Positions 22,400-43,421 are shown, counted from the first letter of the stretch. The stretch is 64,000 nt of DNA from Patescibacteria group bacterium (GCA_038063615.1 JBBTUT010000002.1:48746-112745); one strand, 5' to 3'. Program-made: numbers and translations. Notes: generated by a model not told the origin, from the letters alone.

Positions 22400-24424
22400 C
22401 TAGAGTTTTATTCCCGATATCGGATAAGCTTTCAATACCTTTTCCGCTTCGGCGCGCTTGCCGTTTGCCATCAAGATTTGTAAATAATATTTTTCAGCAA
22501 CCTCAAACTCCGGTGCAAGCTCGAATGCGCGTTTGAACAACTCCTCTGTTTTCGCCGTGTCTTTCTTGCGGTAATAAGCGCTTCCCAATTCAAAAAGCAT
22601 GGTTTGTTTTGCCGGAGAGAGTTCAACAGCCCTCGTGAGATACGGCAATGCTTTGTCCATCTCCCCCATCTTCGCGAAGTATGATCCCGCAAAAAGCTGG
22701 TAGCGCGCATCGCTGGGAAGCTCTTTCACCTGTTTCTCAAGCTCCTCTCCAGCGAGAACAATATACTGTTTCTGCAAATCCGATATTCCTTTTGTTTGGT
22801 CAAAGGCGGTCGTTGAGAACGATGCAAGCTGTTCGCGTGCTTCAGCCGTTCCAAATGAATCGTATGCAATGGTGTCCTTGAAGAGCTTGAGGTTATTCAA
22901 TGGGTCCGCAGATCGCTCCGTCAGCGCGCGAATGAGCGTCGTGTTTTGCTTGAAACCATTGTAATTCACGGTGTAGATGAGTACGAGCGCGAGGATGAAA
23001 GCCCCGCCTGAAACAAAGATAGTCAGGTCTTCCTCTTCCGTCACTTTCTTCTTACTTTCCACTTTCGACTTCGAATCAGCTGATTTCGTGGCTCGGCCAT
23101 AAACACTTTCCATTTGTGGGTGGCTCATACTTTCAACGAATGCAAGAATCGTTCCAAAATAAATGAGCGACGAAATACTGTCGAACACAAAAAGATTTTG
23201 AAAAAAGTATCCGCCGAGGAGACCCGTGAGCACACTTTTTTCAACGACCGAAAGCTCGTCCGCGCGACGCCAGATGCAATACACCGCGCATCCAAAAAGT
23301 GAAATATACCCGAGAGCACCGAGAATACCGCCCGCGATAAGCCAGTCAAAAAACACATTGTGTGCGCGATCGAACCACTGCTCCTGCCCCCACATATTCG
23401 GGTCATAGTATTTATTGAAAACGAAATTGAAATTCTCCATCCCCCAGCCGAGGATTGGGCGCTCCTTGAACCCTTCGTATGCCATACCCCAGACCATGAG
23501 GCGCGCTTTGCCTGTCCCCTCGCTTGGCGAAATAGCCGCAAGACGCGAGAGGATAGGACTCTGCTGTATGAACGATGCGTCGCGAAGCGCAATGAAACCG
23601 CCGACAAAAATAAACATCGCGAGTAAAATACCGATAGCCCCTCTTCGCACCGCTTTATTGTTTCTCTCAAAGATCGCGACGAGAAGCGTGATGAGTCCGA
23701 GTCCCGCAAAAAGCCCGAGCACCGCCCCGCGAGTCCCCGAATGGTAGAGCACGAACATTTGCAAAAGAATGATCGCGCCGTATATCGCCACACGCACTCT
23801 TTCTCCTGCTGTCGTAAAACTTTGGCGAACGAGAAAAAATCCCGCGAGAAAAATATTGAAGAGCGCGTAGGTGCTCATGTACTCGGCATTGCCGAGTGTG
23901 CCATTGATACGGATGCCGTCCTGCACAACTTTAAACACTCCCGCCCACTGCATGACGCCATAGAGCGCCATGATTACGCCGACGCCAAGGTGGAAGTTTA
24001 AATACGGGCGCCACATGTCGCGCGCCGTAAGTACGGTAGACGCGACGACAAAATATGCGAAAAGATGAAAGTAGGTCACCACGCCCTCCATGCGCTCAAA
24101 GTTGGACCAAAAACTTTTTGTAGGATTTTCGCCAAAAATAGCAGAAAGTGTGATGATACCGAGAAATGCTACAAACGCACCGAGGAGCCAGCCGAACCAG
24201 CTGGTTCGTGTCTTGGATATAAACTTTAATCGATATGCGGGGTCGATGAAAGCGAGAACGAGCCATGCAGAAAACATTATCTCAACGACAATCCGAAACG
24301 CGAAATTCTTCCCCACAATAAACGGGAAAAAAGTAGTTTGCGAAAGAATGACGAACGGGATAAACGGCACCGCCACAAACCCCGCCAAAACCACCGCATT
24401 CGCCAAAATTTTGTGTATGTTCAT
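22400..24424 (-). CDS. O-antigen ligase / Wzy_C-family polymerase-like membrane protein with C-terminal TPR repeats. Start set at MNIHKIL.
   Basis: About 12 TM segments with the YHSGTRGAVLGL Wzy_C/WaaL motif. The C-terminal 230 aa have TPR-like periodicity (AYYRKKDTAKTEELFKRAFELAP). Confidence 0.7.
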   Translation of the reverse strand: MNIHKILANAVVLAGFVAVPFIPFVILSQTTFFPFIVGKNFAFRIVVEIMFSAWLVLAFIDPAYRLKFISKTRTSWFGWLLGAFVAFLGIITLSAIFGENPTKSFWSNFERMEGVVTYFHLFAYFVVASTVLTARDMWRPYLNFHLGVGVIMALYGVMQWAGVFKVVQDGIRINGTLGNAEYMSTYALFNIFLAGFFLVRQSFTTAGERVRVAIYGAIILLQMFVLYHSGTRGAVLGLFAGLGLITLLVAIFERNNKAVRRGAIGILLAMFIFVGGFIALRDASFIQQSPILSRLAAISPSEGTGKARLMVWGMAYEGFKERPILGWGMENFNFVFNKYYDPNMWGQEQWFDRAHNVFFDWLIAGGILGALGYISLFGCAVYCIWRRADELSVVEKSVLTGLLGGYFFQNLFVFDSISSLIYFGTILAFVESMSHPQMESVYGRATKSADSKSKVESKKKVTEEEDLTIFVSGGAFILALVLIYTVNYNGFKQNTTLIRALTERSADPLNNLKLFKDTIAYDSFGTAEAREQLASFSTTAFDQTKGISDLQKQYIVLAGEELEKQVKELPSDARYQLFAGSYFAKMGEMDKALPYLTRAVELSPAKQTMLFELGSAYYRKKDTAKTEELFKRAFELAPEFEVAEKYYLQILMANGKRAEAEKVLKAYPISGIKL

Positions 24425-24531
24425 AGTTTCCCTATCGTACCATAAATTTACGAAAATCGAGAGCGAATTTTGTCCGTATGTTCGCAAAAAAACTCAGTCG
24501 TAATTACTTCTATTTTTGCTTCTTTATACTG

Positions 24532-24807
24532 TTAAACCCCGCCAATCTCTTTCAATAATTCCAATGTTGTTTTAACAGACGGATTTTCTGTGTTTAAAAA
24601 TACCACTCGATCCTTAAATTTTTTAGCTATAGGACCCAGGAACTCCGCTCCCCACGATGGAGAAAAAGCGACAACTCCGTCAAAATCGATCATGACAGGT
24701 TCGTCTTTTTTTATTTCGTTCAACAATGGGGAAAAAGCGAGAGAGGCCTCTCTTCCTGCTGGGCGGGACATTAGTATTGTTCCAAATTTTTTTAAATAAA
24801 TTTTCAT
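24532..24807 (-). CDS. STAS-like DUF4325-family protein (putative anti-anti-sigma-type partner)
   Basis: 91 aa with GTILMSRPAGRE...IDFDGVVAFSPSWGAEFLG, the DUF4325/STAS-like pattern. Sits immediately downstream of a GHKL-ATPase protein. Confidence 0.45.
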   Translation of the reverse strand: MKIYLKKFGTILMSRPAGREASLAFSPLLNEIKKDEPVMIDFDGVVAFSPSWGAEFLGPIAKKFKDRVVFLNTENPSVKTTLELLKEIGGV

Positions 24808-25743: not shown

Positions 25744-26418
25744 CTATTTGTTGTATTTTTTTAGTAACCATGAGCTTGACTGCACTTTCCCACCACCAAC
25801 ATTAAAAACCATCTCCACGCCAAGTTCTTTACAGATCTTTGCCTCAGGAATATCCGCCTCCGCCTTGCGGTCGCCACCATTCGCAAATACCTGTGGTCTG
25901 ATTTTCTCAATTGCTTCTCCAACATCTTCGCGCTCAGTCTCAAGAATAAACACATCATCAACACAACTAAATCCTCGAATAATCCCCGCGCGTTCTTCTT
26001 GATTCATAAAGTTTTTCCCTTTCTTGCGGATGAGCCAGTTATCGCAATTTAACACTACGACCAATCTGTCACCAAGCTTCTTTGCCTCTTCAAACATTTG
26101 CAAATGGCCGATATGAACAGGATCAAACCCTCCACTTACAATTACTACGCGCTTTGCAGTTTCACGCCCATAATCATCTTCGTAGCGAATAATATCATCT
26201 TCTTGCGGATTACCATAAACAAACTCGAAATATGCGCCGGGCAATAATCTATGTTTCTGCATCGGTTCTACTTTATAAAAACCAAAATGCCACTCGGTGC
26301 GTTGGCTATGCGACTGCAAGCTTGTGCGACCCCGCACAAGGATAAATTTAAGCCAAGTATGCTTGGTGTTAAAAAGTTTCCACATCGTCCCCCAAGGTCG
26401 TACGATTTTCATGCCCAA
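25744..26418 (-). CDS. Cytidylyl/adenylyltransferase (RfaE domain II / TagD-like) with an N-terminal cupin-like extension
   Basis: VVIVSGGFDPVHIGHLQMFEEAKKLGDRLVVVLNCD is the (H/T)xGH nucleotidyltransferase motif. Confidence 0.5.
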   Translation of the reverse strand: MGMKIVRPWGTMWKLFNTKHTWLKFILVRGRTSLQSHSQRTEWHFGFYKVEPMQKHRLLPGAYFEFVYGNPQEDDIIRYEDDYGRETAKRVVIVSGGFDPVHIGHLQMFEEAKKLGDRLVVVLNCDNWLIRKKGKNFMNQEERAGIIRGFSCVDDVFILETEREDVGEAIEKIRPQVFANGGDRKAEADIPEAKICKELGVEMVFNVGGGKVQSSSWLLKKYNK

Positions 26419-26484: not shown

Positions 26485-27519
26485 ATGAAAAAAGCACTCA
26501 TCACCGGCATCACGGGGCAAGACGGTTCATATCTCGCGGAACTTCTCCTTGAAAAAGGATATGAAGTTCACGGTATAATCAGACGCGCAAGTACATTCAA
26601 TACCTCACGCATCGATCATCTTTATCAAGATCCCCACATCAAGGGCGTAAAATTATTCCTACACTATGGAGATCTCTCCGACGGAAGCAACATCAACAGA
26701 CTTCTCACGCAAATAAAACCGGACGAAATTTATCATCTCGGCGCTCAAAGTCATGTGCGCGTAAGTTTTGATATACCGGAATATACCGGCGATGTAACGG
26801 GGCTCGGAACACTCCGCATCCTTGACGCAATTCAAGAAACGGGAATCAAAACAAAATTTTACCAGGCATCATCAAGCGAAATGTTTGGAAAAGCGCTTGA
26901 GATCCCCCTCAAAGAAACCACACCATTTTATCCTCGCTCGCCATACGGCTGCGCAAAAGTATATGCGTACTGGATAGCAAAAAATTACCGTGAATCCTAC
27001 GGTGTTTTTGCCTCGAACGGCATACTTTTTAACCATGAGTCCCCTCGTCGCGGAGAAACATTTGTGACTCGTAAGATCACGCGAGGACTCGCGCGTATCA
27101 AACTCGGCAAGGAGGAAAAACTTTATCTTGGGAACCTCGATGCAAAAAGAGACTGGGGGTATGCAAAAGACTATGTGTATGGGATGTGGCTGATGCTCCA
27201 ACACACAGAGCCGGATGATTTCATTCTCGCCACAAACGAAACGCACAGTGTTCGTGAATTCATCGAAGAAGCATGCAAGCATCTTGGTTTTGAACTTAAA
27301 TGGAAAGGAGAGGGTGTAAATGAAAAAGGTATCGATAAAAAATCAGGAAAAACTATCGTAGAAATTGACGCAAAATACTTTAGGCCTGCCGAAGTTGATA
27401 TTCTCCTTGGGGACTACTCAAAAGCAAAAAATAAGCTCGGGTGGGAACCAGAAACAAAATTCAAGGAGCTGGTGAAACTTATGGCTGAAGAAGATCTTAA
27501 AAATGAACAAAAATTCTAA
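26485..27519 (+). CDS. gmd: GDP-mannose 4,6-dehydratase
   Basis: [34 protein letters not shown]...[10 protein letters not shown] match Gmd over the full length. Confidence 0.95.
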
Positions 27520-28435
27520 AATTTTTGTTGCAGGGCATCGCGGGCTTGTTGGCTCCGCTATTGTACGCGTGCTCCAAAAAAATGGCTTCACGAACCTCGT
27601 TCTCAAAACACACAAGGACATGGACCTCACCGACCAACACGCGGTCACTGAATTTTTTGCAGAAGAGAAACCTGAGTATGTTTTTCTTTCCGCGGCAAAA
27701 GTGGGCGGTATTATGGCAAACAAAACTATGCCTGCCGACTTTGCCTATAACAATCTCGCAATCCAGACAAACATCATCCATAGCGCCTACATACACAAAG
27801 TAAAAAAGTTGTTATTTCTCGGAAGCTCCTGCATCTATCCAAAACTCTGCCCACAGCCGATAAAAGAGGAATATCTTTTATCCGGAGAACTTGAGTCATC
27901 GAACAAAGCGTATGCAATAGCAAAAATAGCGGGCATCATTATGTGCCAATCCTACAACGAACAATACGGCACAAATTTCATTTCATTGATGCCGACCAAC
28001 CTCTATGGACCCCACGATAACTTCGATCTCGAAAACTCGCATGTCCTCCCTGCGATGATTCGAAAATTCCACGAGGCAAAAGTTAACGATGCACCAAGTG
28101 TTACTTTATGGGGCACAGGAAGCGCGAAGCGCGAGTTTCTCCATGTGGACGACCTCGCGGAAGCAAGTTTATTCTTGATGCAGAATTACAACGACTCCTC
28201 CATTATCAATGTCGGCACTGGCGAAGATGTGACTATTAAAGAACTCGCGGAAAAAATAAAAGAAGTTGTTGGATACAGGGGTGAAATCATTTGGGATATC
28301 ACCAAGCCCGACGGCACCCCAAGAAAACTCCTTGATGTCAGCAAGCTTCATACACTTGGATGGGGACACTCTATATCGCTCAATGATGGTATCTCCTCGA
28401 CATATAAATGGTTTAAGGAAAACCATAAATACTAA
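27503..28435 (+). CDS. fcl: GDP-L-fucose synthase (GDP-4-keto-6-deoxymannose 3,5-epimerase/4-reductase)
   Basis: [16 protein letters not shown]...[10 protein letters not shown]...YAIAKIAGI are Fcl/WcaG motifs. Confidence 0.9.
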
Positions 28436-29298
28436 ATCCTAACCCACCCTTCTGGAATTATATTTGGCTGCGGGTCTGGCTCCTTATTCACCCATTTCTT
28501 TGGCGCAATAACTATTTTGTTTGGATTTTGATTGAGGTATGCACCCCACCATGAAAAAGAGGAGTTTGCGATAATATTGTGGGCGCACGAGGACATGAGA
28601 ACTAACTCTTCGTAATCCTGAAGGGTTGGATTTGAAACATACCTAAAATCAGAATGTTCGCCAAATTCTTTTTTGACCCAGTCGATATCGTCAGAAAAAA
28701 AGTAAAAGACCGGTGATTCTACTTTTGCCTTAATCAGATTGATGGTCTTTTCATAATACTCCTTGGAACAAAGTCCATGAGCGATATTGGTTTTGGGGTC
28801 GCTCACATAATCTCCCCGTCGAATATGCACCGAGACGCTCCTTGTTTTATCAATCTTATTTTTCTCCGTGAGAAAGACCTCAGATTCAAGTTCTTTTTTG
28901 AGAGCAAACTCTTTGAAAACTTTATCTTTAACATCTATGAAGTTTTTCTCTGACTGAAAGTACCCTTCAATATAGTTATGGCTTTTCTTAAAAAAGTTTG
29001 GGTCATAATCCACATAATACCTCTTTAAAATCCTAAAGTTAAAAAACCTCATAGCTTTTGAAAAAATCCCGAAGGGATACTTATAGGACTTGACCTCATC
29101 CGGAGTCGCAATAACTGCCGAAAGATTAAATGGGAACATTCTGTACTGCCGTGGCGTATCGGCTGTTACATAACGAGGATCATCATACCCAGTAATATCA
29201 AGTTTTAGCGTTTGACTACACACCGAAACAACCTCAAGCCCAGTGGCGTACTGAAACATCTGGTTCCCTAACCCGCCTTTTAATTTAACGACAATCAT
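28432..29298 (-). CDS. Alpha-1,2-fucosyltransferase (GT11). Start set at MIVVKLKGG.
   Basis: [11 protein letters not shown] and HIRRGDY, the GT11 motifs I and II. Confidence 0.8.
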
Positions 29299-29300: not shown

Positions 29301-30026
29301 TTATTTTTTGAACAAAAAACACCCACATGCGTAATTTTGAGATTGAACAAGTTTTGGGTCAGCGTGTTCAATAAAATCTCCCTGCTCGACTGTATCAGTA
29401 ATTAAAGAAAACTCAGCAAGTTTCAAATCTTGGAACATGCCCAAAACTTGGTCATAACTATAAATTCTATGCGCATTGAATTCTATTTTTGGCTTACCAA
29501 CAGGGACAACAAATAACAAGTAGCCACCAGAGGAAAGGACGCGGCTAAGCTCTTTAGTTGCTTTTATATCACCATCTGGATCGATTGCATCACCATACCT
29601 ACCAAGACCAACATGCTCAACAGTGTGCATACATGAAAGTGATTTCATTGAACTATCTGCAAATGGGAGATTCGTGAGGTCAGCCACACCACTTTCAATG
29701 CCGGAGAGTTTCAATTGTGCCGGCCGATAATCGTAAAATTTTATATGGACAAACGCGGACACGATGCTAGAAAAATAGAGTGATGAAGAAATATCAGTAT
29801 GAAACCCCGAGTTTATCTCCTTCACTTTTCGCGCCGCCCACGCTGTATGATAAACATAATGCCGATCAAACCCCGTTTTAACCGTTTTATCTTTTACTTG
29901 CGGGTAAAAATCCTCAAACGCCAAGCTGAAGCGACAGCTTTTATCCATACTCATAAACTGAAAGTAATCCCTTAAGACAAATGGTGTGAGAAATAAACGA
30001 ATTACTTTTTTAATTATTTTTTTCAT
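29301..30026 (-). CDS. DUF268-like putative SAM-dependent methyltransferase
   Basis: HTVEHVGLGRYGD..DPDGD resembles DUF268 methyltransferase-fold proteins. Confidence 0.35.
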   Translation of the reverse strand: MKKIIKKVIRLFLTPFVLRDYFQFMSMDKSCRFSLAFEDFYPQVKDKTVKTGFDRHYVYHTAWAARKVKEINSGFHTDISSSLYFSSIVSAFVHIKFYDYRPAQLKLSGIESGVADLTNLPFADSSMKSLSCMHTVEHVGLGRYGDAIDPDGDIKATKELSRVLSSGGYLLFVVPVGKPKIEFNAHRIYSYDQVLGMFQDLKLAEFSLITDTVEQGDFIEHADPKLVQSQNYACGCFLFKK

Positions 30027-30036: not shown

Positions 30037-31134
30037 TTATTCTACAATAGAAAGTAGAGCATCAATCTCTTTTTTAACATCTGCGACGCTTATATTTTTT
30101 ATACACGGAGCTGGCTCTCCTTTTGAGAGACCTTCTGCGCATTTCCATCCATCCCCTCTACACTTCATGTTGGGATTAAATACGATCCTATTTATATCTA
30201 GATTACCATAAGGAAAGAAGCGCCCAAAATGACCACCACCCATTATCGCAATTGATGGGGTCCCGACGGCAACGGCTAAGTGAAGCGTTCCTGTATCGTT
30301 TCCAAAATACAGCTTTGCACCAGCAAGCAAATGCGCGAGGGAAGGTAGACTTGTTCTACCTATAAGGTTGATAACCTTATCTCTGTGTTTCGATTGTTTC
30401 ATTATTTCTTCTCCGAGCAATTGTTCTTCCGTTGTCCCCGAAAGAACTACGGACAACCCTTTTTCTACTAAATAATCCACAATTTCAAACATTTTGTTCA
30501 ATTGCCACATCTTGTACGTCGCCCCAGCTCCAGGAACGACAGCAACATATTTTCCAGATTCTAAGGCATATTCTTTGTAAATTTGTTCATAGTGTTTCTT
30601 GTCCAGAAGAGAAACATCGATTGTTGGGAACAATGCCTCACATGGCTTGCCTACGACATTTGAAACAAAGGCCATATTTTTGTCTAGCTCATTTAGACTG
30701 TCCGGGATTGCAATTGTTTTAAAATCCAAGACTTTCGGTGCTCTTGTATCCTTCATTATGATGTCTCCAATTTTTTCACTGGTGTAAACAGGATAAATAG
30801 CGACATCAAATCCTTTCTGTGCAAGATTTTTTATAAATGCCCTTCGGTGCCAAAAATTTGTTCGAAATTTTTTCTGATCAAAAATAATTACATCATCTAT
30901 AAAGGGAAATAACGGAGTGAGCTCTGCGCATACACTATTCACTACTAAGCTAATGTCGTAATCTTTATAGTACTCACGATAATACTTTAGTGTTGGTATA
31001 AAAATTACAAAATCACCCAGTACATCTTTTCTGAAAATTAATACGCGTCTTTTTTTATGTATTTCTTGTCGAACAAACCGACACTCAAGTGCGATAAGAT
31101 TATCCATAATATTTTTTACAATTTGCCTCAACAT
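30037..31134 (-). CDS. Glycosyltransferase family 9 (heptosyltransferase-like)
   Basis: VLIFRKDVLGDFVIFIPTLKYY...AVVPGAG...LIGRTSL...FGNDTGTLHLAVAVGTPSIAIMGG, the GT9 pattern. Confidence 0.7.
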   Translation of the reverse strand: MLRQIVKNIMDNLIALECRFVRQEIHKKRRVLIFRKDVLGDFVIFIPTLKYYREYYKDYDISLVVNSVCAELTPLFPFIDDVIIFDQKKFRTNFWHRRAFIKNLAQKGFDVAIYPVYTSEKIGDIIMKDTRAPKVLDFKTIAIPDSLNELDKNMAFVSNVVGKPCEALFPTIDVSLLDKKHYEQIYKEYALESGKYVAVVPGAGATYKMWQLNKMFEIVDYLVEKGLSVVLSGTTEEQLLGEEIMKQSKHRDKVINLIGRTSLPSLAHLLAGAKLYFGNDTGTLHLAVAVGTPSIAIMGGGHFGRFFPYGNLDINRIVFNPNMKCRGDGWKCAEGLSKGEPAPCIKNISVADVKKEIDALLSIVE

Positions 31135-31135: not shown

Positions 31136-31912
31136 TTATGTGTTCTCTTGATTTACAAGCATCACATTGTCCGAAACTGTTTTACTCTTGAGTAATTTTC
31201 GCACTATCAAATCAACCTGAACAGTGGTCAATGAAAGCAACAATTTAAAAAGCCAATTAGTAATTATCTTCTTCGTAAATAAATGGAGGTTTGCACCATC
31301 ACTATATATATTCACATTATATTTATTAGCAATATATTCAAGAGTTTTTAATGAATAAAAGGAGACATGCTGTCCGTGGTTTAAACCATAATATTCCCAA
31401 TCATCTGATGGTGCCTCTTTCCCTGAAAACAAAACGGTTGAAAAGAATATATTCGGAGAAATGGAAAATATTTTACCAATTTCATTTTTCGGATCTGCGA
31501 GATGTTCGAAGCATTCAAAACATGTCACTGCTTCAATTTTTTGATTGTTATATTCAAGCCCTTTCATAAACAAATTCGGTGTGTATGCGTCATCAGTCAG
31601 GAAATCCAGACCGTAGTCGCGCATCAGGCGCGCGAGCATCCCGTATCCACCGGCAAAATCAAGGAAGGTCGCTTTCGTGTTAAAAAGGAATAAAAAAAGT
31701 ACCAGAGTTTTGCGAGATAAATACACATTGCGCAACACATATCCCGTATCGGTTGTGTTTATCGGTTCTTTGTAGGCCTCACTAAGCCATATTGGGCTAC
31801 CAACAAACATAAACCCACACTCATCGCATAAATAATACTCGGCATTGTAAACACCCCTTACCTTCAAGGTTTTTACAAGAATTGCTTCAGATTGGCAGAT
31901 CTTACATTTCAT
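31136..31912 (-). CDS. SAM-dependent methyltransferase with N-terminal CxxC...CxxC zinc ribbon
   Basis: MKCKICQS...CDECG, then FLDFAGGYGMLAR motif I. Confidence 0.45.
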   Translation of the reverse strand: MKCKICQSEAILVKTLKVRGVYNAEYYLCDECGFMFVGSPIWLSEAYKEPINTTDTGYVLRNVYLSRKTLVLFLFLFNTKATFLDFAGGYGMLARLMRDYGLDFLTDDAYTPNLFMKGLEYNNQKIEAVTCFECFEHLADPKNEIGKIFSISPNIFFSTVLFSGKEAPSDDWEYYGLNHGQHVSFYSLKTLEYIANKYNVNIYSDGANLHLFTKKIITNWLFKLLLSLTTVQVDLIVRKLLKSKTVSDNVMLVNQENT

Positions 31913-35725: not shown

Positions 35726-36364
35726 CTAGTTAGATTCAATCACCATAATATCTCTTTCTATTTTAAATGAAAGATAACTATAATTAGCCACCAAATCTTG
35801 GATTTGTTTTACGGTTGGATAATCATGTGTCCCATCAAAACATCTAGCATCGTCGATTAAAATAATATCTTTTGCATTTTTTCTCGAAAAAATCGTGAGT
35901 AATTCTTTTATAACCGGCGTTTCTACCTCCCCTTTCGCGGTACCTTCGCCGGAATAATGAGCATCGAGCCAGAACAAAGCTGGCTCACTAATTGTGGGCA
36001 ATATTTCTATAAGTTTTTCTCCGCTGTCACCATGTATTAAGGTGACATTTTTATAATTAGCAAAATTATTTTTTGCATTTTCAAACAAAAAGTTGTCGAG
36101 CTCTATTGATACAATCTTAGAAAAGATATTTTTTACAGCGTTTATCATCAACCCCCCAGCTGTGCCAGTTTCTATAAAAGTTTTTAATTTGTTTTTTTTA
36201 CCAAACCTTCTAACGATTTTTTGTTTAATTAAATCTGGAGGAGGAACCGGCTGGCCTTCAAGAGACCATCTTAGTACAGCTTTTTCGTCCCGGATTCTTT
36301 TGATTATAGATTGTGGGATTATTTTTTTAAAAAATGCTTTTATTTTTTTATTCATATTTTTCAA
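35726..36364 (-). CDS. Class I SAM-dependent methyltransferase (TylF/MycF-like O-methyltransferase fold)
   Basis: FIETGTAGGLMINA motif I and ILIDDAR. Confidence 0.45.
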   Translation of the reverse strand: MKNMNKKIKAFFKKIIPQSIIKRIRDEKAVLRWSLEGQPVPPPDLIKQKIVRRFGKKNKLKTFIETGTAGGLMINAVKNIFSKIVSIELDNFLFENAKNNFANYKNVTLIHGDSGEKLIEILPTISEPALFWLDAHYSGEGTAKGEVETPVIKELLTIFSRKNAKDIILIDDARCFDGTHDYPTVKQIQDLVANYSYLSFKIERDIMVIESN

Positions 36365-36412: not shown

Positions 36413-37270
36413 TTAAAAAGTGCCATTTCTGCAAATTATTTTCTTAGAAAGGTCAAAAACCGTGCATTCTCGAATATTAATCCTTGGAATGCCTAAACTA
36501 TTTTTTGTCTTCTTTGCGAGTTTTTGCGTGTTTGAATACGCAAAATCAAAACCGGCCTGCTCAACTATTTCTTTTGAAAAATTATTAAAATCATAGATTC
36601 CACCAAAAGGATAGGCAAAACTTCTTACTTTTTCTCCAATTATATATTCAAGTGTAAGCTTGCTTTTTAAAATTTCTTTTTTCTGTTCTTCTGGGGTTGC
36701 GCTCGCAAGCCTTTGGTGTGTTTCTGTATGAGCGCCTATTTCTATCAATGGGTGTTCATAGAGTGATTTTATTTCTGTTTCACTTAAAAAAACTGCTCGG
36801 TCAGATTCTTTATATTTCATATCCCATTCAAACGATGCTTTTCTCCCGAGTGCGCCAGTTGTTATGAATATTGTTGCTGGTATATTATATTTTTCAAGTA
36901 AAGGAAGGGCATTGATTATGTTGTCGCGGTATCCATCATCAAAAGTAACCGCGGCCTCATTCCCTTTAAGTGTTCCCGCTATGAGTAGCCCGCTTAATTC
37001 TGAAAGAGGTATAATATTGTAATGTTTTTTGAGGAACTGTAGGTGATTTTCAAAACACACAGGTGTCACACATAGCATAAGTGGATCAGCAGATGTTGTC
37101 GAGATACGATGGTAAAGTAAAATTGGCGCGGTCTTGTAAAAAGTTTTATAAAATATATTAGCGATTTTTGCCTGAGTATGTAGTAGCAGAAAAAATAAAC
37201 GATGCATCGATACATAAAGACCGGTTGCTTCAAAAAAGGGTTTTATATAAATCTTTAAAATTCTTTTCAC
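36413..37270 (-). CDS. Polysaccharide deacetylase (NodB / CE4)
   Basis: AAVTFDDGYRDN...ATIFITTG...EIGAHTETHQRL, the CE4 motifs. Confidence 0.75.
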   Translation of the reverse strand: MKRILKIYIKPFFEATGLYVSMHRLFFLLLHTQAKIANIFYKTFYKTAPILLYHRISTTSADPLMLCVTPVCFENHLQFLKKHYNIIPLSELSGLLIAGTLKGNEAAVTFDDGYRDNIINALPLLEKYNIPATIFITTGALGRKASFEWDMKYKESDRAVFLSETEIKSLYEHPLIEIGAHTETHQRLASATPEEQKKEILKSKLTLEYIIGEKVRSFAYPFGGIYDFNNFSKEIVEQAGFDFAYSNTQKLAKKTKNSLGIPRINIRECTVFDLSKKIICRNGTF

Positions 37271-37992
37271 GGTTTTACTGCTTTAACTGTTATAATTAAC
37301 GGAAAATTTGGATCATTTTTCCCAAGTATCCTGCTCGAAGTATCCTCTTGCGCAAGACCCGCATAAAAATATATTCCCGAACGAGCGTTTCCATAGGTGG
37401 AGATGTTCAATTGTTTGGAGCTAAATTTTTTTTCAAATAGATACTTCGCTGACGCCTCAGTAAATCTCCAATAATCACCCTCAACACCCGAAACACAATC
37501 AATTCTACTTATGGAAGGCAATGTCACGAGAAGGACGCCACCGCTCTTAAGTATTCGGTGGCACTCAGAAATCCCCGCATCAACATTATCAATAAACTGA
37601 AATACCTGAGTAAGTATTATGCAGTCGTAAGAATTATCAGCTATTTTTTTAAGATGTCGCAAGTCATCGAAAATGTTTGCCATCTTGTTTTTTTCATCAA
37701 GATCCAAAACATCGCTTTTAACAACCTTCTCTTTCCCGTAGGTTGTGGTGTAGTTATTGTTTAACAGTTCGAGACATGTCCCATGGATGTCTTTCTGGTT
37801 TTGTTTAAGGAAATTCTCAATATAAAAACGGTCAATTGGTACTCCTCGGTCAAACCCATAGTAGTTGCTGAGTGGACCAGTTGTACTTCTGCAAAAATAG
37901 AATGCCGCAGGTTTTATTATTCGTCGCAGAAGTTTTCTTGTACTTTCAGAAAATGGAAGTTTTTTAATGATTTTTTTTAAATATGAGTACAT
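37267..37992 (-). CDS. Putative SAM-dependent methyltransferase
   Basis: HGTCLELLNNNY...DCIILTQVFQFIDN...LKSGGVLLVTLP, the Methyltransf_11/23-like pattern. Confidence 0.4.
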   Translation of the reverse strand: MYSYLKKIIKKLPFSESTRKLLRRIIKPAAFYFCRSTTGPLSNYYGFDRGVPIDRFYIENFLKQNQKDIHGTCLELLNNNYTTTYGKEKVVKSDVLDLDEKNKMANIFDDLRHLKKIADNSYDCIILTQVFQFIDNVDAGISECHRILKSGGVLLVTLPSISRIDCVSGVEGDYWRFTEASAKYLFEKKFSSKQLNISTYGNARSGIYFYAGLAQEDTSSRILGKNDPNFPLIITVKAVKP

Positions 37993-38015: not shown

Positions 38016-38789
38016 TTACATTTTTTTTACAAACAGGTAATCTTTTTCATCTATTTCATCAACAAAGGAATACCCTCGAGGTTCCAGAAAATCGGTAATC
38101 TTTTCCAATCTGTCAGAATTTTGAGACTCCAAAAGAATATGGGTGGGTAAATTTCTAGAAAAATCGAGTCCATGCAATATTTGAAGTTCATATCCCTCAA
38201 CATCCGCAACAAAAAGATCAATAGGCCTATTGCATGAAGTTATTGCTTGCCCGTCTATTATCGACTGAATTGTTTGCGCTGGTACAGTGATTTCTCTGCA
38301 ATCTATATTTTGTGCTTGCTCACTATCTTTAATCCACTCTGAACTATTCTCAATACTACTTTTTACGAAAGACATAAAATTACAATCAATAAAAGACACC
38401 GTGCTCTCACGGTAGTCAAATGAGACACAAGCACTTTGTATTACCACCGAATTTTTACGATTTCTTTGACACAATTTACTTATAGGTAAGGGTTCAACAA
38501 TAATCCCTTCCCACCCCATAAACTTTTCGAGATAATAGGTAGGATCAAAACCATAACCATCATTACCCCCGCATTGTACAAAAAACCCATTTTTCTTGGT
38601 AATATGTTTCAGTAGTGCCTCATGACCAGAGTACGGCTTTGAATATTTTTCTGAACCAAAAAACTCATACAAATCCCTCTTGTATGGCGCAATTTTACTT
38701 CTTATAAATGGGAAGATTTTACCGATATTCTTTCGCGGGTTTTGTATCAGTTTCTTTATTTTTTGAAGATTTGTCTCTTGATATGCCAT
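38016..38789 (-). CDS. FkbM-family methyltransferase
   Basis: FFVQCGGNDGYGFDPTYY and DLFVADVEGYELQIL. Confidence 0.55.
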   Translation of the reverse strand: MAYQETNLQKIKKLIQNPRKNIGKIFPFIRSKIAPYKRDLYEFFGSEKYSKPYSGHEALLKHITKKNGFFVQCGGNDGYGFDPTYYLEKFMGWEGIIVEPLPISKLCQRNRKNSVVIQSACVSFDYRESTVSFIDCNFMSFVKSSIENSSEWIKDSEQAQNIDCREITVPAQTIQSIIDGQAITSCNRPIDLFVADVEGYELQILHGLDFSRNLPTHILLESQNSDRLEKITDFLEPRGYSFVDEIDEKDYLFVKKM

Positions 38790-38829: not shown

Positions 38830-39795
38830 TTACGCAAGGATGCGTTTTAATAGTTTTGTAATTCTTAGTGCCACCAGTATCTTTACAAAATAATGCAATA
38901 CTCTGTCTCTTTTCCTTTTACCTATTTTACTATAAAATTCTTTTAATAACCTTACTGCTTCTGTATTTTCAACAATATTATCTTCAAAAATTATTTCTTC
39001 TTCATCGCTCAATTCAACCTCAAATTGGTGCTTCCCAAGAATTTTATTAATTGCAGAAAAGTGAGTGCCATTAAATAACCCGTTATTCTTTATTAAAGGT
39101 TTCGGTGAATTTACCGCAAGTCCATTGTTGCGTGTAATCGCAACATACCAACATATATCCCAAGGGATTGGATTTAATTTCAAGCTAGATAAACAATTAA
39201 ATGCGCCATCTAATTCCATTTTTCCCCTCTGTTCAATCGATAAAGCGTCTAATCCCTCTGCTTCATTTTGAAACCACTTGAATTTATCCCAGCGATTTTT
39301 CCAAGTACCCCACCCACCTCCAGTATTTTCTGAGTATCTCCAGAAAAATACTTTGTTGTACCCAGCTGGCATTTTAATAAATGTGAAGGTTGCAATATGC
39401 ATGACCTTCTCTTTGTCTTCATAAAAATCGAGAGCATTATTCATAAATGTGAGAAAGTTTTTTGCAGACACACCATCGTCCTCTAAAACGATAATTTTGC
39501 CATATCTGTTTACTATTTCAGTCACACCTTCAATTATATTTCTTTCGATATAGAAATTTTCTTTCCGTTCAATTATATTTACAGACTTAAAACCGGTTAT
39601 TGTTTTTATATACTGACGCACAGCATCAACAGCTTTCTTATTTTTTGCAGTTTTCGGCGCATCAGAAAAAATAAAGATATCTGTTTTTTGGGCTAGATAA
39701 TTATTTTTTAGCGCTTCTATTGTCTGCCTTGTATTATCCAAGCGATTGTACACAAAAATGGCGACAGGAGCTTGCGTTTTATTTAGATTATCCAT
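38830..39795 (-). CDS. GT-A-fold putative glycosyltransferase, paralog B (same family as 31924..32874)
   Basis: VAIFVYNRLDNTRQ...IFSDAP...GGGWGTWKNRW. Confidence 0.4.
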   Translation of the reverse strand: MDNLNKTQAPVAIFVYNRLDNTRQTIEALKNNYLAQKTDIFIFSDAPKTAKNKKAVDAVRQYIKTITGFKSVNIIERKENFYIERNIIEGVTEIVNRYGKIIVLEDDGVSAKNFLTFMNNALDFYEDKEKVMHIATFTFIKMPAGYNKVFFWRYSENTGGGWGTWKNRWDKFKWFQNEAEGLDALSIEQRGKMELDGAFNCLSSLKLNPIPWDICWYVAITRNNGLAVNSPKPLIKNNGLFNGTHFSAINKILGKHQFEVELSDEEEIIFEDNIVENTEAVRLLKEFYSKIGKRKRDRVLHYFVKILVALRITKLLKRILA

Positions 39796-40582
39796 GTTTT
39801 TGTAACGCTCGAGGATGATTACCTGGCGTGCTAATAAGTATTGATTTTGCGCGAGTAATGCGTTTTTCTGGTGGCGGTGGGGTTATATAATCTTTGCCAT
39901 ACATCAAAGATAAATATTCATGTACTTTTTTAGGTGCAGGATATAATTTACTCTCAAACTCAATATAATTAAGCGGGTAAATATAAGATTTTGGTATTGC
40001 ATAATAATACCAATTATCCTCAACAGTTTGGGCTACCTTGTCACTTTTAAATGGAGAAAGTAACAGCCAAATAAATTTGCACAATAGGTAGATAGAATAA
40101 TTAAAAAAGACATTTTCTCTGGAAATAACAGCTTTAGCGCGTGATCGACCAGTAAAGTACAGTAATCCCTTTCTCAAAAAGTCAGGCATCTTAGGATAAA
40201 TTACTGATGGGAAAATATCGATGTAGATTCCCTGATGATACGACTCTTCACCTGTTTCATTTTCGTGTAAAAATGTAGAATAACAATCACAGAGTTTTGC
40301 GAAGTGCTGCTTATATGCTTTGTCTGTTTTGGCGGTCTGCAGGAAAATATCTTGCGGGAGTTCTTTCTCTGCTATTTTTAAGAATTTTTTATAATCCTCT
40401 ACTGGCATTGACACATCAATGTCATCATCCCAAGGAATAAATCCTTTTTGTCGTACCGCACCAAGCAGGGTCCCAAAATCTATCCAAAAGACCAACCCAT
40501 GTTTGTCACAAATTTCTTTCAACGCATCCAGAAGATATATCTCTTTTTTCCTATACTCAATGTAGTCTTTTTCGCTTATCAT
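39788..40582 (-). CDS. LicD-family phosphotransferase (cholinephosphotransferase / fukutin-like)
   Basis: YLLDALKEICDKHGLVFWIDFGTLLGAVRQKGFIPWDDDIDVSM, the LicD nucleotidyltransferase-fold motif. Confidence 0.75.
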   Translation of the reverse strand: MISEKDYIEYRKKEIYLLDALKEICDKHGLVFWIDFGTLLGAVRQKGFIPWDDDIDVSMPVEDYKKFLKIAEKELPQDIFLQTAKTDKAYKQHFAKLCDCYSTFLHENETGEESYHQGIYIDIFPSVIYPKMPDFLRKGLLYFTGRSRAKAVISRENVFFNYSIYLLCKFIWLLLSPFKSDKVAQTVEDNWYYYAIPKSYIYPLNYIEFESKLYPAPKKVHEYLSLMYGKDYITPPPPEKRITRAKSILISTPGNHPRALQKHG

Positions 40583-40592: not shown

Positions 40593-41219
40593 TTATTTTT
40601 TTACCGCAATCACCCTTATGAATGTATAGTCAGTATCCCCAAATGGGGCAAAACCAGACTTTTCCTCTTTAAATACGACTTCAAATCCTGCCTTTATTAG
40701 TTTTTTGTGCAATCTGTCTATATCTATGAATCTACGAAAATGGCCTTCATAAATGTAGGCGTCTGGCTCACCATGAACAGGATCTCCTAATTTGTATATT
40801 TCGTTCTTCTTCCCCCTTGTTTCGATTAGTAGTTTACCATTGTTTTCTATGTGTTCATATGTCCACTTAATAACATCATCTTCCTCTTTTTCTGTAATAG
40901 AATGTAGCGTAAAACGAGAATAAACATTGTCAAAAAAGCCTATTTCGCCTAATTTTGTAAAATCAGCACACATAAATTTTAAATTGGGGATGTTATTTTT
41001 TTCTGCTAACACAGATATTTCATTTTCACATTGATCTACTGCTAAAACGTCAACGCCATGATCACTAAAAAGAAAACTATCTCTGCCATTTCCGCAACCA
41101 AGTTCTAATAAAGAATTTTTTTCTTTTATATAATTTTCTAATACGAACTGCGCGAATAAAGACGCTTGTAAAGGCGCATTCTTTATTTTATAATAATTTT
41201 CCCAATATTTTTTGTCCAT
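40593..41219 (-). CDS. Class I SAM-dependent methyltransferase
   Basis: LLELGCGNGRDSFLF, VLAVDQCENEI and MCADF. Confidence 0.7.
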   Translation of the reverse strand: MDKKYWENYYKIKNAPLQASLFAQFVLENYIKEKNSLLELGCGNGRDSFLFSDHGVDVLAVDQCENEISVLAEKNNIPNLKFMCADFTKLGEIGFFDNVYSRFTLHSITEKEEDDVIKWTYEHIENNGKLLIETRGKKNEIYKLGDPVHGEPDAYIYEGHFRRFIDIDRLHKKLIKAGFEVVFKEEKSGFAPFGDTDYTFIRVIAVKK

Positions 41220-41264: not shown

Positions 41265-42566
41265 TTAATTTTTTTGGGTGAAAATTTTAATTATACCATC
41301 TCTTGATCTTTTAAAAAGGAGCAAGCTGGCTACAACCACAAGATATGATATCATAGTCCCCCATGCAGATCCTTTGGGGCCAAACTGCGGAATCAGAATA
41401 ACATTAAGCAGAATATTTGCTGTAGCGCCAATAATGCTTGTGTATAAAAATATTCTGCTAAGATTTTCGACGATGAGGTAATGTTGCGCAAGAACTACTA
41501 GCGTTATAGCGATACTTGTCCATAGGTATATTCGAAGAATCGGAGATGATTCAGCAAAGGCTCCTCCAAAAACAATTTGGATAATTAATGGCGCAAAAAT
41601 AAACAGCGGAAGAGCAATTACGGCTGTTGCCACCACGGTAACCCATGATAGAGCTCGAAATCTTTTTGCATACAATGAAAAATTTGTTTTTTTTGCATTT
41701 ACTATTGCTGGAAACATTGAACTAATAATTAACCCAGGCAAGAATGCCCAAATTTGAGTAAGCTTAACAGCGGCGCCGTAAATTCCGACAGTTGCAGAAT
41801 CGAGATAGTGTAAAAGTAACACCTGATCCATTTTTGCATATATATATCCAGAAAATCCAGCTAGAAGTAACGGCCATGAGTCTCGCATTAGTTGTTTAAA
41901 TATATCTAAACGAAAATTCCACAAAAAAGGACTGTTGTTAAAACGAACAATATAAATATAAAGATACCATGCGACAGATATGATTGCTTCAATAAAAATT
42001 ATTACAGCAAAGTATATAATACCTTTGTTTAGAAACACGACAAGAATCTTAAGCGCAGGTATGAAAAAAGCTAGGAAAATGGAAATTTGGGAGCTAAATT
42101 TTGCTTTTACTTGAGCGTTGAAAAGAATTCCGACTGTGCCTATTGGGCTAATGATGAAAGCTAACGCGCAAATACCAATTAATATAGTTAAGATTGAATC
42201 ATTGCCTAAGAGAAGTGAGATCACAATTGACAATAAGAACGCGAGTATCCCAAAAATTAATTTTGAAAATATAGCAGTTCCAAGTAGCTCATTTTCTTTT
42301 TCTGGATTAGTAATAAGATCACGATATAAGATTTGATCAATACCCAATGATGCAAATACTGAAATAATGGCTACAAAACTTTGGGCATAATCAAGTTTCC
42401 CAAGGTTCTCTGGCCCAAGGTAGCGTGCAACAATTGCAACAGTAAGAAATGATGTAAAGAAAGTAGTAATACGCGCAGCAAACATCCACCCCATGTTTCT
42501 GAAGTACTTCTGAAAGCCAGCATGTGCCCATGTTTCTTTTATGTATGAGGCGGTAATTGGGGGCAT
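41265..42566 (-). CDS. Wzx-type polysaccharide flippase (MOP/PST family)
   Basis: 433 aa with about 12-14 TM segments and the typical PST N-terminus. Confidence 0.7.
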   Translation of the reverse strand: MPPITASYIKETWAHAGFQKYFRNMGWMFAARITTFFTSFLTVAIVARYLGPENLGKLDYAQSFVAIISVFASLGIDQILYRDLITNPEKENELLGTAIFSKLIFGILAFLLSIVISLLLGNDSILTILIGICALAFIISPIGTVGILFNAQVKAKFSSQISIFLAFFIPALKILVVFLNKGIIYFAVIIFIEAIISVAWYLYIYIVRFNNSPFLWNFRLDIFKQLMRDSWPLLLAGFSGYIYAKMDQVLLLHYLDSATVGIYGAAVKLTQIWAFLPGLIISSMFPAIVNAKKTNFSLYAKRFRALSWVTVVATAVIALPLFIFAPLIIQIVFGGAFAESSPILRIYLWTSIAITLVVLAQHYLIVENLSRIFLYTSIIGATANILLNVILIPQFGPKGSAWGTMISYLVVVASLLLFKRSRDGIIKIFTQKN

Positions 42567-42650
42567 AATATTGGGACTTTATTGGAGGATAATACCATTT
42601 TCCCTACTTATTTTCTATAGGGGATGGTATATTAAACAGGAAAGAATATC

Positions 42651-43421
42651 ATGAAATTTAGCATAATTACCCCAACATACAAGAGGAGAAAATTGCTTGA
42701 GCGAGCTGTTCAGTCGGTTCTTCGCCAGACCTATACCGAATGGGAAATGATCATTGTGAACGATTCTCCGGATGATTCTTCATACCAAGTGCTTCCTTTC
42801 TCCGTCTCTGACCCGCGAATTCATTACCTTGCGAATGATACAAATCGTGGTGTAAACTATTCTCGTAATCGGGCTCTCGACAGTATTTCCGAAGATTCAG
42901 ACTGGGTTGTTTTTTTGGATGATGACGACTACCTAGCGCCTGACACACTTACGACTTTTCACAAACTAGTCACTTCTCACCCAAAGGGAATGTGGTTCGT
43001 CACCAATCGCGCATACGCAGGAGGAAAGCTAGTCACAAAATACCCAAAGCTGGAAACATGGTATTCATATATCAAAGATGTTCTCATCTTAAAACGATGC
43101 AAAGGCGATGTAACACATTGTATAAAAGCAAACCTACTTACCAACATTAGATATTCAAAACACATCAAGCAAGCCGAGGAATGGTTATTCTACTACCAAA
43201 TTGCGCTTCGAGAAAAAATATTCTACCACGACCACAATAGTACTTTGACTGATGGGTATGATAAAGTTTCTGGGCTCAACTTCCGTAAACGCACTCGCGC
43301 CGAGCAATTCAAAACGCTCCGTGTCTTTATCCGCGAAGGGTCTGAACTTCACCTTCTCCATCACCCAACATTTCTCATTTATCTTTTCATGCGGTTCGTG
43401 CGACTGTGCCTCAAACCGTAG
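42651..43421 (+). CDS. Family-2 glycosyltransferase
   Basis: FSIITPTYKRRKLLERAVQSVLRQTY...IIVNDSPDD...VFLDDDD. Confidence 0.8.
   Translation: MKFSIITPTYKRRKLLERAVQSVLRQTYTEWEMIIVNDSPDDSSYQVLPFSVSDPRIHYLANDTNRGVNYSRNRALDSISEDSDWVVFLDDDDYLAPDTLTTFHKLVTSHPKGMWFVTNRAYAGGKLVTKYPKLETWYSYIKDVLILKRCKGDVTHCIKANLLTNIRYSKHIKQAEEWLFYYQIALREKIFYHDHNSTLTDGYDKVSGLNFRKRTRAEQFKTLRVFIREGSELHLLHHPTFLIYLFMRFVRLCLKP

Follow-up and report, generated by a model that had tools for sequence, protein, structure and literature searches.

The glycan locus at positions 22400-43421 of the DNA analysed here, a window of 64,000 nucleotides from a Patescibacteria group bacterium (GCA_038063615.1 JBBTUT010000002.1:48746-112745), is probably a serotype-like surface-glycan island of a Yonathbacteria-type bacterium of the Candidate Phyla Radiation (CPR), in which an enzyme with the fold of WaaL transfers the glycan en bloc. 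The open reading frame (ORF) map and Pfam/NCBIfam scans of the 64-kb window, with gene calls accepted when above the curated cut-offs, reveal genes for glycosyltransferases (GTs), S-adenosylmethionine (SAM) methyltransferases, GDP-fucose synthesis and export. An initial annotation had proposed a locus for a surface glycan, with genes for the supply of GDP-fucose, for fucosyltransferases and for numerous SAM methyltransferases, and these families were recovered. Its calls of Gmd, Fcl, two GT11, two GT2, GT9, LicD, CE4, Wzx and a Wzy_C protein with a tetratricopeptide repeat tail (Wzy_C-TPR) all exceed the curated cut-offs, and the names that fared differently are taken up below. The coordinates also include non-glycan genes (a MerR/DUF4325 pair) and a cupin-nucleotidyltransferase that the annotation did not mention. 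The genes of the locus and its two anchors are:

18009..20468, minus strand: SecA, the conserved left anchor (Pfam SecA domains)
22400..24424, minus strand: Wzy_C-TPR membrane protein of 674 aa (PF04932, 69.6 bits against a cut-off of 31.7, residues 239-395; TPR matches at residues 595-689)
25744..26412, minus strand: nucleotidyltransferase of the cytidylyl/adenylyl-transferase family (PF01467)
26485..27519, plus strand: Gmd, GDP-mannose 4,6-dehydratase (TIGR01472, 578.9 bits against 415)
27503..28435, plus strand: Fcl, GDP-L-fucose synthase (NF047922, 502.2 bits against 500)
28432..29298, minus strand: GT11a of the alpha-1,2-fucosyltransferase family, last gene of the operon (PF01531, 135.8 bits against 23.9)
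29301..30026, minus strand: DUF268 SAM methyltransferase (PF03269, 55.7 bits against 25, plus Methyltransf_11)
30037..31107, minus strand: GT9 of the heptosyltransferase family (PF01075, 89.6 bits against 22)
31136..31912, minus strand: MT23, class I SAM methyltransferase (Methyltransf_23, PF13489, 59.4 bits)
31924..32874, minus strand: GTA1, predicted GT-A fold, putatively GT13-like (no Pfam match; WATWRRAW; invariant EDD and GW..W..W motifs)
32891..33862, minus strand: NanM-type putative sugar O-methyltransferase (TIGR04371, 58 bits against 44)
33850..34812, minus strand: GT2a (PF00535, 128.9 bits)
34824..35720, minus strand: GT11b of the alpha-1,2-fucosyltransferase family (PF01531, 91.6 bits against 23.9)
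35726..36355, minus strand: MTx, probable class I SAM methyltransferase with an ETGTAGG motif (sub-threshold matches only)
36413..37270, minus strand: CE4 polysaccharide deacetylase (PF01522, 89.4 bits)
37267..37992, minus strand: MT11, class I SAM methyltransferase (Methyltransf_11, PF08241, 37.5 bits)
38016..38789, minus strand: FkbM-family methyltransferase (PF05050, 54.3 bits against 22.7)
38830..39795, minus strand: GTA2, distant paralogue of GTA1 (marginal GT2 match, PF00535, 25.1 bits against 23.3; WGTWKNRW)
39788..40582, minus strand: LicD-family phosphotransferase, a family that transfers a phospho-alcohol from a CDP-activated donor (PF04991, 130.1 bits)
40593..41219, minus strand: MT25, class I SAM methyltransferase (Methyltransf_25/23/11; Pfam matches above cut-off)
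41265..42566, minus strand: Wzx flippase of the MOP family, first gene of the operon (PF01943, 96.1 bits; PF13440, 73.7 bits)
42651..43421, plus strand: GT2b, resembling PglI, TuaG and WcaA in NCBIfam matches (PF00535, 97 bits)
44763..46448, minus strand: Elp3-type radical-SAM/GNAT tRNA-modification enzyme, the right anchor (TIGR01211, 537.5 bits against 350)

Sixteen co-directional minus-strand genes, running from 42566 to 28432 with intergenic gaps of at most 57 bp, form an operon that is transcribed in the order Wzx, MT25, LicD, GTA2, FkbM, MT11, CE4, MTx, GT11b, GT2a, NanM-type methyltransferase, GTA1, MT23, GT9, DUF268 methyltransferase and GT11a. GT2b (42651-43421) is divergent from Wzx, and Gmd and Fcl (26485-28435, plus strand) converge on GT11a. 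The operon and the divergent GT2 together encode seven GTs, namely two GT11, one GT9, two GT13-like proteins and two GT2. The only integral membrane proteins are Wzx, which has nine hydrophobic segments and is the sole protein of the cassette with multiple transmembrane (TM) segments, and Wzy_C-TPR; a hydropathy scan found no TM segments in any of the methyltransferases and GTs, and neither a TM segment nor a signal peptide in CE4.

The AT-rich block at 28.4-42.6 kb that the initial annotation had noticed is confirmed by a windowed GC analysis, and the composition is clearly non-uniform. The GC content is 0.349 at 28432-42566 and 0.483 outside the locus, while the mean GC at third codon positions (GC3) rises from 0.315 in the 16 genes at 29.3-43.4 kb to 0.448 in the six genes at 22.4-29.3 kb and 0.542 in the 32 genes outside (GC3 difference, Mann-Whitney p = 1.4e-7). 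Both GC transitions are covered by nine contigs of independent Hainich assemblies that run collinear with the window, thus indicating that the block is no assembly or binning artefact; eight of the nine are 99.5-100% identical to the window without indels. Identical proteins occur in assemblies of the Hainich groundwater wells H41 and H43 from the 0.1 and 0.2 µm fractions, and SecA is 86% identical to that of metagenome-assembled genomes of Candidatus Yonathbacteria and Nomurabacteria. The SecA match and the filter fractions place the host among the Parcubacteria (Paceibacterota) of the CPR, as a Yonathbacteria-like member for which a simple envelope is a reasonable expectation.

The structural conservation of the locus was compared in 80 SecA loci, in the loci L090, L091 and L092, which were retrieved via GT11a homologues, and in Elp3-type radical-SAM relatives from a metagenome scan. 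Among the 80 SecA loci, many from Paceibacteria harbor an orthologue of Wzy_C-TPR just upstream of SecA (29-79% identity), and the common frame consists of a UbiE-like methyltransferase and Elp3, a variable island, and Wzy_C-TPR-(MurB)-SecA. Elp3, the bacterial homologue of the tRNA U34 modification enzyme, is conserved beside the UbiE-like methyltransferase in distant CPR relatives and syntenic with Wzy_C-TPR in L108 and L113. The distance between Elp3 and Wzy_C-TPR amounts to 1.2 kb in L108, 4.8 kb in L113 and 20.3 kb in the window, and the short version in L108 shows the order UbiE-like methyltransferase, Elp3, one epimerase, Wzy_C-TPR, a 345-aa ORF in the murB position and SecA. This retention of both flanks around inserts of different length and content supports the cassette-like swapping that had been postulated for the locus.

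The extent of swapping is not uniform across the locus. L090, L091 and L092 have a proximal module in common that comprises Wzy_C-TPR, the nucleotidyltransferase (ManC in L091), Gmd, Fcl, GT11 and DUF268. Beyond this module L090 and L091 carry a PfkB kinase, a transketolase-like E1 and an alcohol dehydrogenase, and L092, the one of the three for which SecA identity was measured (87%), carries a GDP-heptose pathway, WavE and GDPD. The initial annotation had treated the block from 28.4 kb as swapped; this applies to the distal genes, whereas the proximal third (Wzy_C-TPR, nucleotidyltransferase, Gmd, Fcl, GT11a and DUF268) is vertically conserved. Modules of the window reappear elsewhere: L175 harbors GTA1-MT23-GT9-DUF268-GT11-Fcl-Gmd at 70-88% identity, L173 GTA1-MT23-GT9 together with FkbM, MTx and GT2a, L174 MT11-CE4-GT2a, and L091 MT11-CE4. 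These loci are AT-rich as well (GC 0.29-0.39), and GC also drops in the variable parts of relatives, among them some with host genes at 0.55-0.6. Of the named homologues of GT9 and GT11a, those from CPR bacteria are the closest. The comparison therefore supports the view that the AT-rich block is a variable cassette between fixed anchors, a mosaic that was apparently assembled from an AT-rich gene pool common to Parcubacteria. The horizontal acquisition proposed earlier holds as exchange within this shared pool, and in its broader form the claim was too general.

A low GC content could also arise without exchange, if vertically inherited glycan genes of weak expression had long been subject to mutational bias or to relaxed selection. 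The vertically conserved proximal module is itself below the genome GC (0.39-0.44), and the cassettes of the relatives are AT-rich whatever the GC of their hosts. Moreover, neither an integrase, a tRNA attachment site nor direct repeats flanking the island were found, and the only match of the AT-rich block to phages is 55 nt long. However, the content between the same anchors differs completely among genomes whose SecA proteins are 83-87% identical, and the modules recur in other combinations and orders in other genomes. Vertical decay cannot yield such differences in content and such reshuffling, and we consider this explanation highly improbable.

The evidence from Wzy_C-TPR argues for a ligase or O-oligosaccharyltransferase (O-OTase) rather than a repeat-unit polymerase. 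The best match of its AlphaFold model (pLDDT 81.6, pTM 0.84) in a Foldseek comparison with the PDB is WaaL (7TPG; TM-score 0.66 normalised to the target, E 5.4e-5), and all remaining matches at E <=0.001 are TPR proteins. A sequence-only search of the PDB returned just TPR proteins, so WaaL was reached via the structure model. Hydropathy and the positive-inside rule predict a core of 12 TM helices with a large loop, after about TM9, that carries the GWG and AHN motifs on the outside, and a predicted 13th TM helix would place the TPR tail outside as well; this topology is tentative, because two of the 13 helices are below the hydropathy threshold and were assigned by eye. R232, R294, R308 and H355 (RAHN motif) are invariant in 29 orthologues. 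For comparison, the conserved loop-region arginines and histidine are R215, R288 and H338 in WaaL of Escherichia coli and R224, R298 and H349 in PglL (PMC3643930).

Three further observations are in agreement with a function as ligase. Across different cassettes, the identity of Wzy_C-TPR stays at 79-80% (L092), 70% (L090) and 61% (L021 and L076). Its orthologues adjoin Wzx in L026, L030, L053 and L076, and Wzm/Wzt ABC exporters, a route that needs no Wzy, in L021 and L034 (with Wzt_C above the cut-off in L034 only). Finally, the cassette contains no multi-TM protein besides Wzx, and no Wzz. Alternatively, the locus might specify a classical Wzx/Wzy capsule or O-antigen-like polymer, with Wzy_C-TPR as the polymerase and the long chain either set free or linked to the wall by a ligase from another locus. 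Wzx and the general layout of O-antigen and capsular polysaccharide clusters would fit, as would the wording of the initial annotation, and the Pfam family Wzy_C also covers some polymerases. Yet the orthologues beside Wzm/Wzt accompany chains that are completed in the cytoplasm without any Wzy, and identities of 60-80% across cassettes contrast with the behavior of polymerases, which co-vary with the repeat unit. No family match to Wzz or another polysaccharide co-polymerase was obtained in any Pfam scan of the window, no LCP gene is present in it, and seven GTs plus a phosphotransferase are many for one repeat unit; together with the best fold match to WaaL, this makes the polymerase scenario quite unlikely. 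The postulated heavily O-methylated, fucose-rich polymer is thus retained as a methylated, fucose-containing surface glycan, but the term polymer is too specific: a dedicated Wzy is lacking in the cassette, Wzy_C-TPR behaves like a conserved ligase, and en bloc transfer of an oligosaccharide is no less likely.

The acceptor may be either a protein, which is favoured by analogy with described systems, or a lipid. The S-layer O-OTases WsaB and WsfB (predicted) contain Wzy_C, and a C-terminal TPR has been reported for WsfB and PglL (PMC2943079). The same pathway could instead end on a membrane glycolipid or lipoglycan, in a WaaL-like ligation. The lipid A-core ligase WaaL is indeed the best structural match, no PglL_A motif was seen among the Pfam matches and the GT9 family is typical of the synthesis of the lipopolysaccharide core; but CPR bacteria are generally held to lack lipid A, TPRs usually bind proteins, C-terminal TPRs are reported for the protein O-OTases WsfB and PglL, and the window contains no genes for the synthesis of a lipid anchor, lipid A and core included. 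A lipid acceptor is hence possible but, in our view, unlikely. Candidate protein acceptors in the window are a surface protein with LTD and PKD domains (48179-49675, minus strand), which has a signal peptide, an S/T/A/P-rich linker and a C-terminal anchor and adjoins a coupling-protein-like ATPase of type IV secretion systems (49723-51696, minus strand), and a secreted protein with an S/T/P-rich stalk but no Pfam match (60638-61645, minus strand); both are possible targets.

Several points speak against an exchangeable island with a protein-directed en bloc transferase. The PglL_A signature (PF15864) is not among the Pfam matches of Wzy_C-TPR at E <=0.01, which is weak evidence since the signature was defined on Gram-negative PglL proteins only, and simple sequence similarity does not distinguish PglL from WaaL (PMC3643930). 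The best structural match, WaaL, is a lipid-directed ligase, and the outside location of the TPR tail depends on the hydropathy count with its two helices assigned by eye. If the proximal module is responsible for an invariant part of the glycan, as it could be, the conservation of a polymerase would be explained equally well, and the occurrence of Wzy_C in some Wzy polymerases makes such a role formally possible. An initiating phosphoglycosyltransferase of the WecA/MraY or WbaP type was not found among the scanned ORFs of the window. The substrates of the methyltransferases are inferred from family names and gene context. The swapping is read from a comparison of gene contents; all nine Hainich contigs carry the same locus, so that no cassette replacement was seen within this population, and a conspecific strain carrying another cassette was not found either.

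If the locus is nevertheless an island of this kind, an initiating phosphoglycosyltransferase encoded elsewhere would start the glycan on a polyprenyl-phosphate carrier at the cytoplasmic face. The GTs would extend it, with O-methylation at several positions, de-N-acetylation and addition of a phospho-alcohol substituent, and Wzx would flip the glycan to the outer face of the membrane. Here Wzy_C-TPR would transfer it en bloc to an acceptor, most likely a serine, threonine or tyrosine of surface proteins by analogy with WsfB and PglL, while the extracytoplasmic TPR tail would hold the acceptor. Exchange of the cassette would proceed by homologous recombination within the conserved flanks and result in lineage-specific glycans; phage pressure and host-recognition pressure are the likely selective forces.

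Both Gmd and Fcl exceed the cut-offs of pathway equivalogs, and the enzymes are accordingly predicted to make GDP-L-fucose. GT11a and GT11b, which are 32% identical (E 2e-50), are predicted alpha-1,2-fucosyltransferases by family, and GT11a is 72-84% identical in L090, L091, L092, L175 and L012. Variation is seen in the organization of the donor genes: L090, L091 and L092 harbor a NUDIX hydrolase gene between gmd and fcl and a Gmd type of 360 aa, while the window and L175 lack the NUDIX gene and have a 344-aa Gmd and overlapping gmd/fcl genes. The Gmd of the window is 93% identical to those of L012 and L015 while SecA reaches 86%, a hint that genes of the 'conserved' module have also been exchanged.

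Our analysis revealed seven methyltransferases within the locus (29301, 31136, 32891, 35726, 37267, 38016 and 40593), of which one (35726) is weakly supported, instead of the at least eight initially reported. Two more are located outside, at 17382-18002 and 46491-47297, and the latter is the conserved neighbor of elp3 in distant relatives. Regarding the types that had been named, FkbM and DUF268 are present above the cut-offs, whereas TylF (PF05711) has no match in any protein of the window. The typable enzymes are of the sugar type and do not point to non-sugar targets; they include the NanM-type enzyme, a type that the initial annotation had not named and whose gene (32891-33862) has the lowest GC content of the locus (0.285), and the FkbM enzyme, whose counterparts beside GT11 in relatives also match V_cholerae_RfbT. 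MT23 is 71-82% identical in L090, L091, L173 and L175, every time beside a homologue of GTA1, and the pair of MT11 and CE4 is common to L091 (62% and 49%) and L174 (66% and 64%). MTx has weak matches to RrnaAD (E 4e-4), Erm (E 9e-6) and the MW1564 protein (PDB 3NTV, E 0.0045), and it is 42% identical to the C-terminal half of a protein in L173 (1354-2781, plus strand), whose N-terminal half matches FkbM just below the cut-off. Its assignment to TylF was rejected after comparison with the TylF domain of L034 (E 1.8). This domain is part of a protein (L034 1638-3218, minus strand) in which a GTA1-type glycosyltransferase is fused to a TylF O-methyltransferase domain, and the fusion proteins of L034 and L173 link the unassigned families of GTA1 and MTx to glycan methylation.

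In the window and in L092, L108 and L175 the DUF268 gene directly adjoins GT11, and in L090 and L091 a single gene separates the two, which amounts to six independent loci; we regard its product as a candidate O-methyltransferase for fucose or a fucosyl glycan. The function of DUF268 is uncharacterised and the fucose methyltransferase of Caenorhabditis elegans is unidentified (PMC7614267), which together with the recurrent pairing makes GT11-DUF268 a testable lead.

The two paralogous GT-A-like proteins with a W(G/A)TW(K/R)(N/R)RW motif that had been recognized from the sequence are GTA1 (31924) and GTA2 (38830), which share 23% identity (E 2.6e-12). A profile of this family has weak matches in the PDB to POMGnT1 (E 0.0048) and GnT-I (E 0.81), and the invariant EDD aligns with the corresponding region of POMGnT1. 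GTA1 and the NanM-type methyltransferase (31924 and 32891), which both lack a Pfam match, were also tried as a paralogue pair, but they are unrelated (BLASTP E 0.45). Homologues of GT2a with 46-68% identity are present in L173, L174 and L175.

GT9 reaches 74-86 bits with the equivalog models of heptosyltransferases I and II, all below the cut-off, and belongs to a small subfamily of 133 proteins whose named members are mostly from CPR bacteria; its more distant named homologues include one from Omnitrophica and one from a cyanobacterium. Its constant neighbors are DUF268 and GT11. Genes for GDP-heptose are found near GT9 homologues in one of five neighborhoods (L174, with a homologue of 69% identity) and are absent from the other four, the window included. 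The search of the window for GDP-/ADP-heptose genes detected no GmhA, HddA or GmhB, just a generic NTP-transferase with about 35% identity to HddC. A heptose donor of GT9 is possible, although the window offers no support for it.

The nucleotidyltransferase of the proximal module is 88-95% identical among the relatives and thereby exceeds the conservation of SecA. Its best NCBIfam models are rfaE domain II (82 bits) and TagD (56 bits), both below the cut-off, and its PDB matches are cytidylyltransferases of ethanolamine phosphate, glycerol phosphate and choline phosphate; the N-terminal approximately 85 aa appear cupin-like, with an RPWG motif (by eye). The same slot is occupied in L091 (L091 13513-15663) by a canonical ManC (NTP-transferase plus mannose-6-phosphate isomerase cupin) and a HAD phosphatase. 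The nucleotidyltransferase may supply a CDP- or ADP-activated donor, and, judging from family membership, the enzyme and LicD together could add a phospho-alcohol to the glycan. The best NCBIfam models of CE4 are PgaB and IcaB, below the cut-off. A PgaC/IcaA-like processive GT2 synthase (183 bits, below the cut-off) and its conserved 234-aa partner are encoded at 12149-14135 (plus strand) and syntenic in relatives, so a separate exopolysaccharide resembling poly-N-acetylglucosamine may be made, with CE4 acting there instead of on the island glycan.

The closest described systems are the clusters for glycosylation of Gram-positive S-layers (slg) and for general protein O-glycosylation. The slg clusters of Geobacillus stearothermophilus (WsaB) and Paenibacillus alvei (WsfB) share with the window a monoderm host, nucleotide-sugar genes, several GTs, O-methylation, a final transferase with Wzy_C (and a C-terminal TPR in WsfB) and a low G+C content, which in the slg clusters is 30-43%, below the genome average and lowest in strain-specific genes (PMC2943079). 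Some S-layer glycans carry O-methyl caps, and the two best-studied systems export by Wzm/Wzt (PMC2943079), a route that is also used by relatives of the window locus. The putative TagD and the putative CDP-glycerol glycerophosphotransferase of P. alvei have a parallel in the cytidylyltransferase-like gene and LicD of the window. In contrast, the window has neither an adjacent S-layer gene nor an initiating enzyme of the WsaP type, its transferase is encoded outside the variable part in a fixed position linked to SecA, and its predicted chemistry comprises GDP-fucose, GT11, GT9, GT13-like enzymes and seven methyltransferases.

The PglL systems of Neisseria (pgl), Acinetobacter and Burkholderia resemble the proposed pathway in Wzx-type flipping, en bloc transfer by an enzyme of the Wzy_C family and relaxed glycan specificity (PMC3643930); PglL has the reported C-terminal TPR, and arginine and histidine residues are invariant in the Wzy_C-TPR orthologues examined. 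They differ from the window, which has no PglL_A signature, no Gram-negative host and no adjacent pilin or target gene, and whose glycan is predicted to be larger and heavily methylated. Clusters for O-antigens and capsules, such as rfb between galF and gnd in E. coli, are low-GC hypervariable cassettes between conserved flanks. Like the window they combine nucleotide-sugar genes, GTs and Wzx, undergo replacement and mosaicism and have a conserved ligase outside the swapped part, but the cassette of the window lacks Wzy and Wzz, a lipid A-core acceptor is not expected, and its ligase has an extra TM helix and the TPR. The mycobacterial pathways for phenolic glycolipids and glycopeptidolipids produce O-methylated fucose and rhamnose. 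Here Gmd and Fcl likewise occur together with fucosyl- and rhamnosyltransferases and several sugar O-methyltransferases, resulting in multiply methylated deoxyhexoses, but the GTs are from other families, the aglycone is a lipid or a peptide, and there is no Wzx or Wzy_C step.

The general view is that CPR bacteria live attached to other microbes, and their surface chemistry is almost unknown. A literature search for Patescibacteria with an O-antigen ligase or fucosyltransferase returned nothing relevant and, within the library searched, no description of such a system in the CPR, and a 2024 study of cultivated Saccharibacteria (TM7x pili) calls glycosylation processes "unexplored" (PMC11623550). 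Loci for O-antigens, capsules and S-layer glycans already show the design of this locus, in which an AT-rich swappable cassette is combined with a conserved ligase and neighboring defence genes, and the value of the finding lies in the extension of a familiar design to a CPR lineage and not in a new principle. The frame elp3 / Wzy_C-TPR / secA marks the site of variable surface-glycan genes in Yonathbacteria and related Paceibacteria; it provides a marker region for strain typing in metagenomes, a concrete candidate enzyme for protein O-glycosylation and, with GT11-DUF268, a lead to a family of fucose O-methyltransferases. A more far-reaching proposal, which we advance tentatively, is that the SecA-linked Wzy_C-TPR could be the general protein O-OTase of Paceibacteria for pili, S-layer proteins or LTD-type surface proteins, that the island glycans would be multiply O-methylated, fucosylated and lineage-specific, and that GT11-DUF268 would make O-methyl-fucose. 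If so, CPR episymbionts would possess a serotype system on which their susceptibility to phages and their attachment to hosts depend, and O-methyl-fucose as the product of GT11-DUF268 would be the first functional assignment for DUF268, a family named after C. elegans proteins (PMC7614267).

The flanks of the locus and the remainder of the window contain additional features:

20960..21190 (approximate): murB gap, the position of murB in L090, L091 and L092, absent in the window
21492-22133, minus strand: AbiEii toxin (Pfam AbiEii; PADLOC AbiEii)
22130-22363, minus strand: DUF6922 antitoxin-like gene between Wzy_C-TPR and SecA (weak precomputed DUF6922 match)
24532-24807, minus strand: DUF4325 gene (weak precomputed DUF4325 match)
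24812-25540, minus strand: MerR/excisionase helix-turn-helix protein with an ATPase-like C-terminal part (Pfam MerR; NCBIfam excisionase, 32.1 bits against 28.8)
43427..44843: insertion of about 1.34 kb (77-nt direct repeat at 43427-43503 and 44767-44843, 90% identical)
43612-44745, plus strand: DUF4143/AAA_14 ATPase gene, PADLOC defence candidate PDC-S01 (479.5 bits)
56661-58380, minus strand: 16S rRNA gene (1,720 nt against a 1,533-position model)

On either side of the gap, the window retains the non-coding DNA that borders murB in the relatives. A tblastn search of the window with the MurB proteins of three relatives found no remnant of the gene (best E 0.39); this absence of residual similarity is indicative of a clean deletion, and the interpretation of the ORF-free 1 kb between SecA and AbiEii as a murB pseudogene was rejected for the same reason. 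The Hainich contigs L003 and L004 break at about 20766, inside the intergenic region between SecA and AbiEii (20468-21492) that contains the gap. The AbiEii/DUF6922 pair is found in some relatives only. No full-length homologue of the MerR gene (24812-25540), whose product has a C-terminal part that by eye resembles a kinase-type ATPase, was detected in any fetched relative, and the corresponding slot in relatives is empty or occupied by another small gene pair (a PemK toxin pair in L090). The pair at 24532-25540 is an insertion and not a pair of glycan genes, and its slot, with Wzy_C-TPR on one side and the nucleotidyltransferase on the other, seems to act as a minor hot spot at which toxin-antitoxin or defence-like pairs are inserted.

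On the right side, the 77-nt repeat, the only clean one found, duplicates the last approximately 26 codons at the 3' end of elp3 and brackets the DUF4143 gene. The segment 43427-44843 looks like a single-gene insertion into the 3' end of elp3. In L096 the DUF4143 gene (89% identical) is located right after elp3 (79% identical), and in the window a 34-nt palindrome is located upstream of the gene (43526-43596). The length of the 16S rRNA gene compared with its model suggests a probable insertion of about 190 nt; a tRNA-Ile(GAT) gene (55687-55760, minus strand) is located about 900 nt downstream, and protein-coding genes occupy the place where a 23S rRNA gene might be expected. Finally, an isolated AT-rich gene at 4948-5892 (minus strand; GC 0.368, GC3 0.311), which encodes a Methyltransf_33 (EgtD-like histidine-specific) methyltransferase, is located among GC-rich housekeeping genes and may be another acquired gene.

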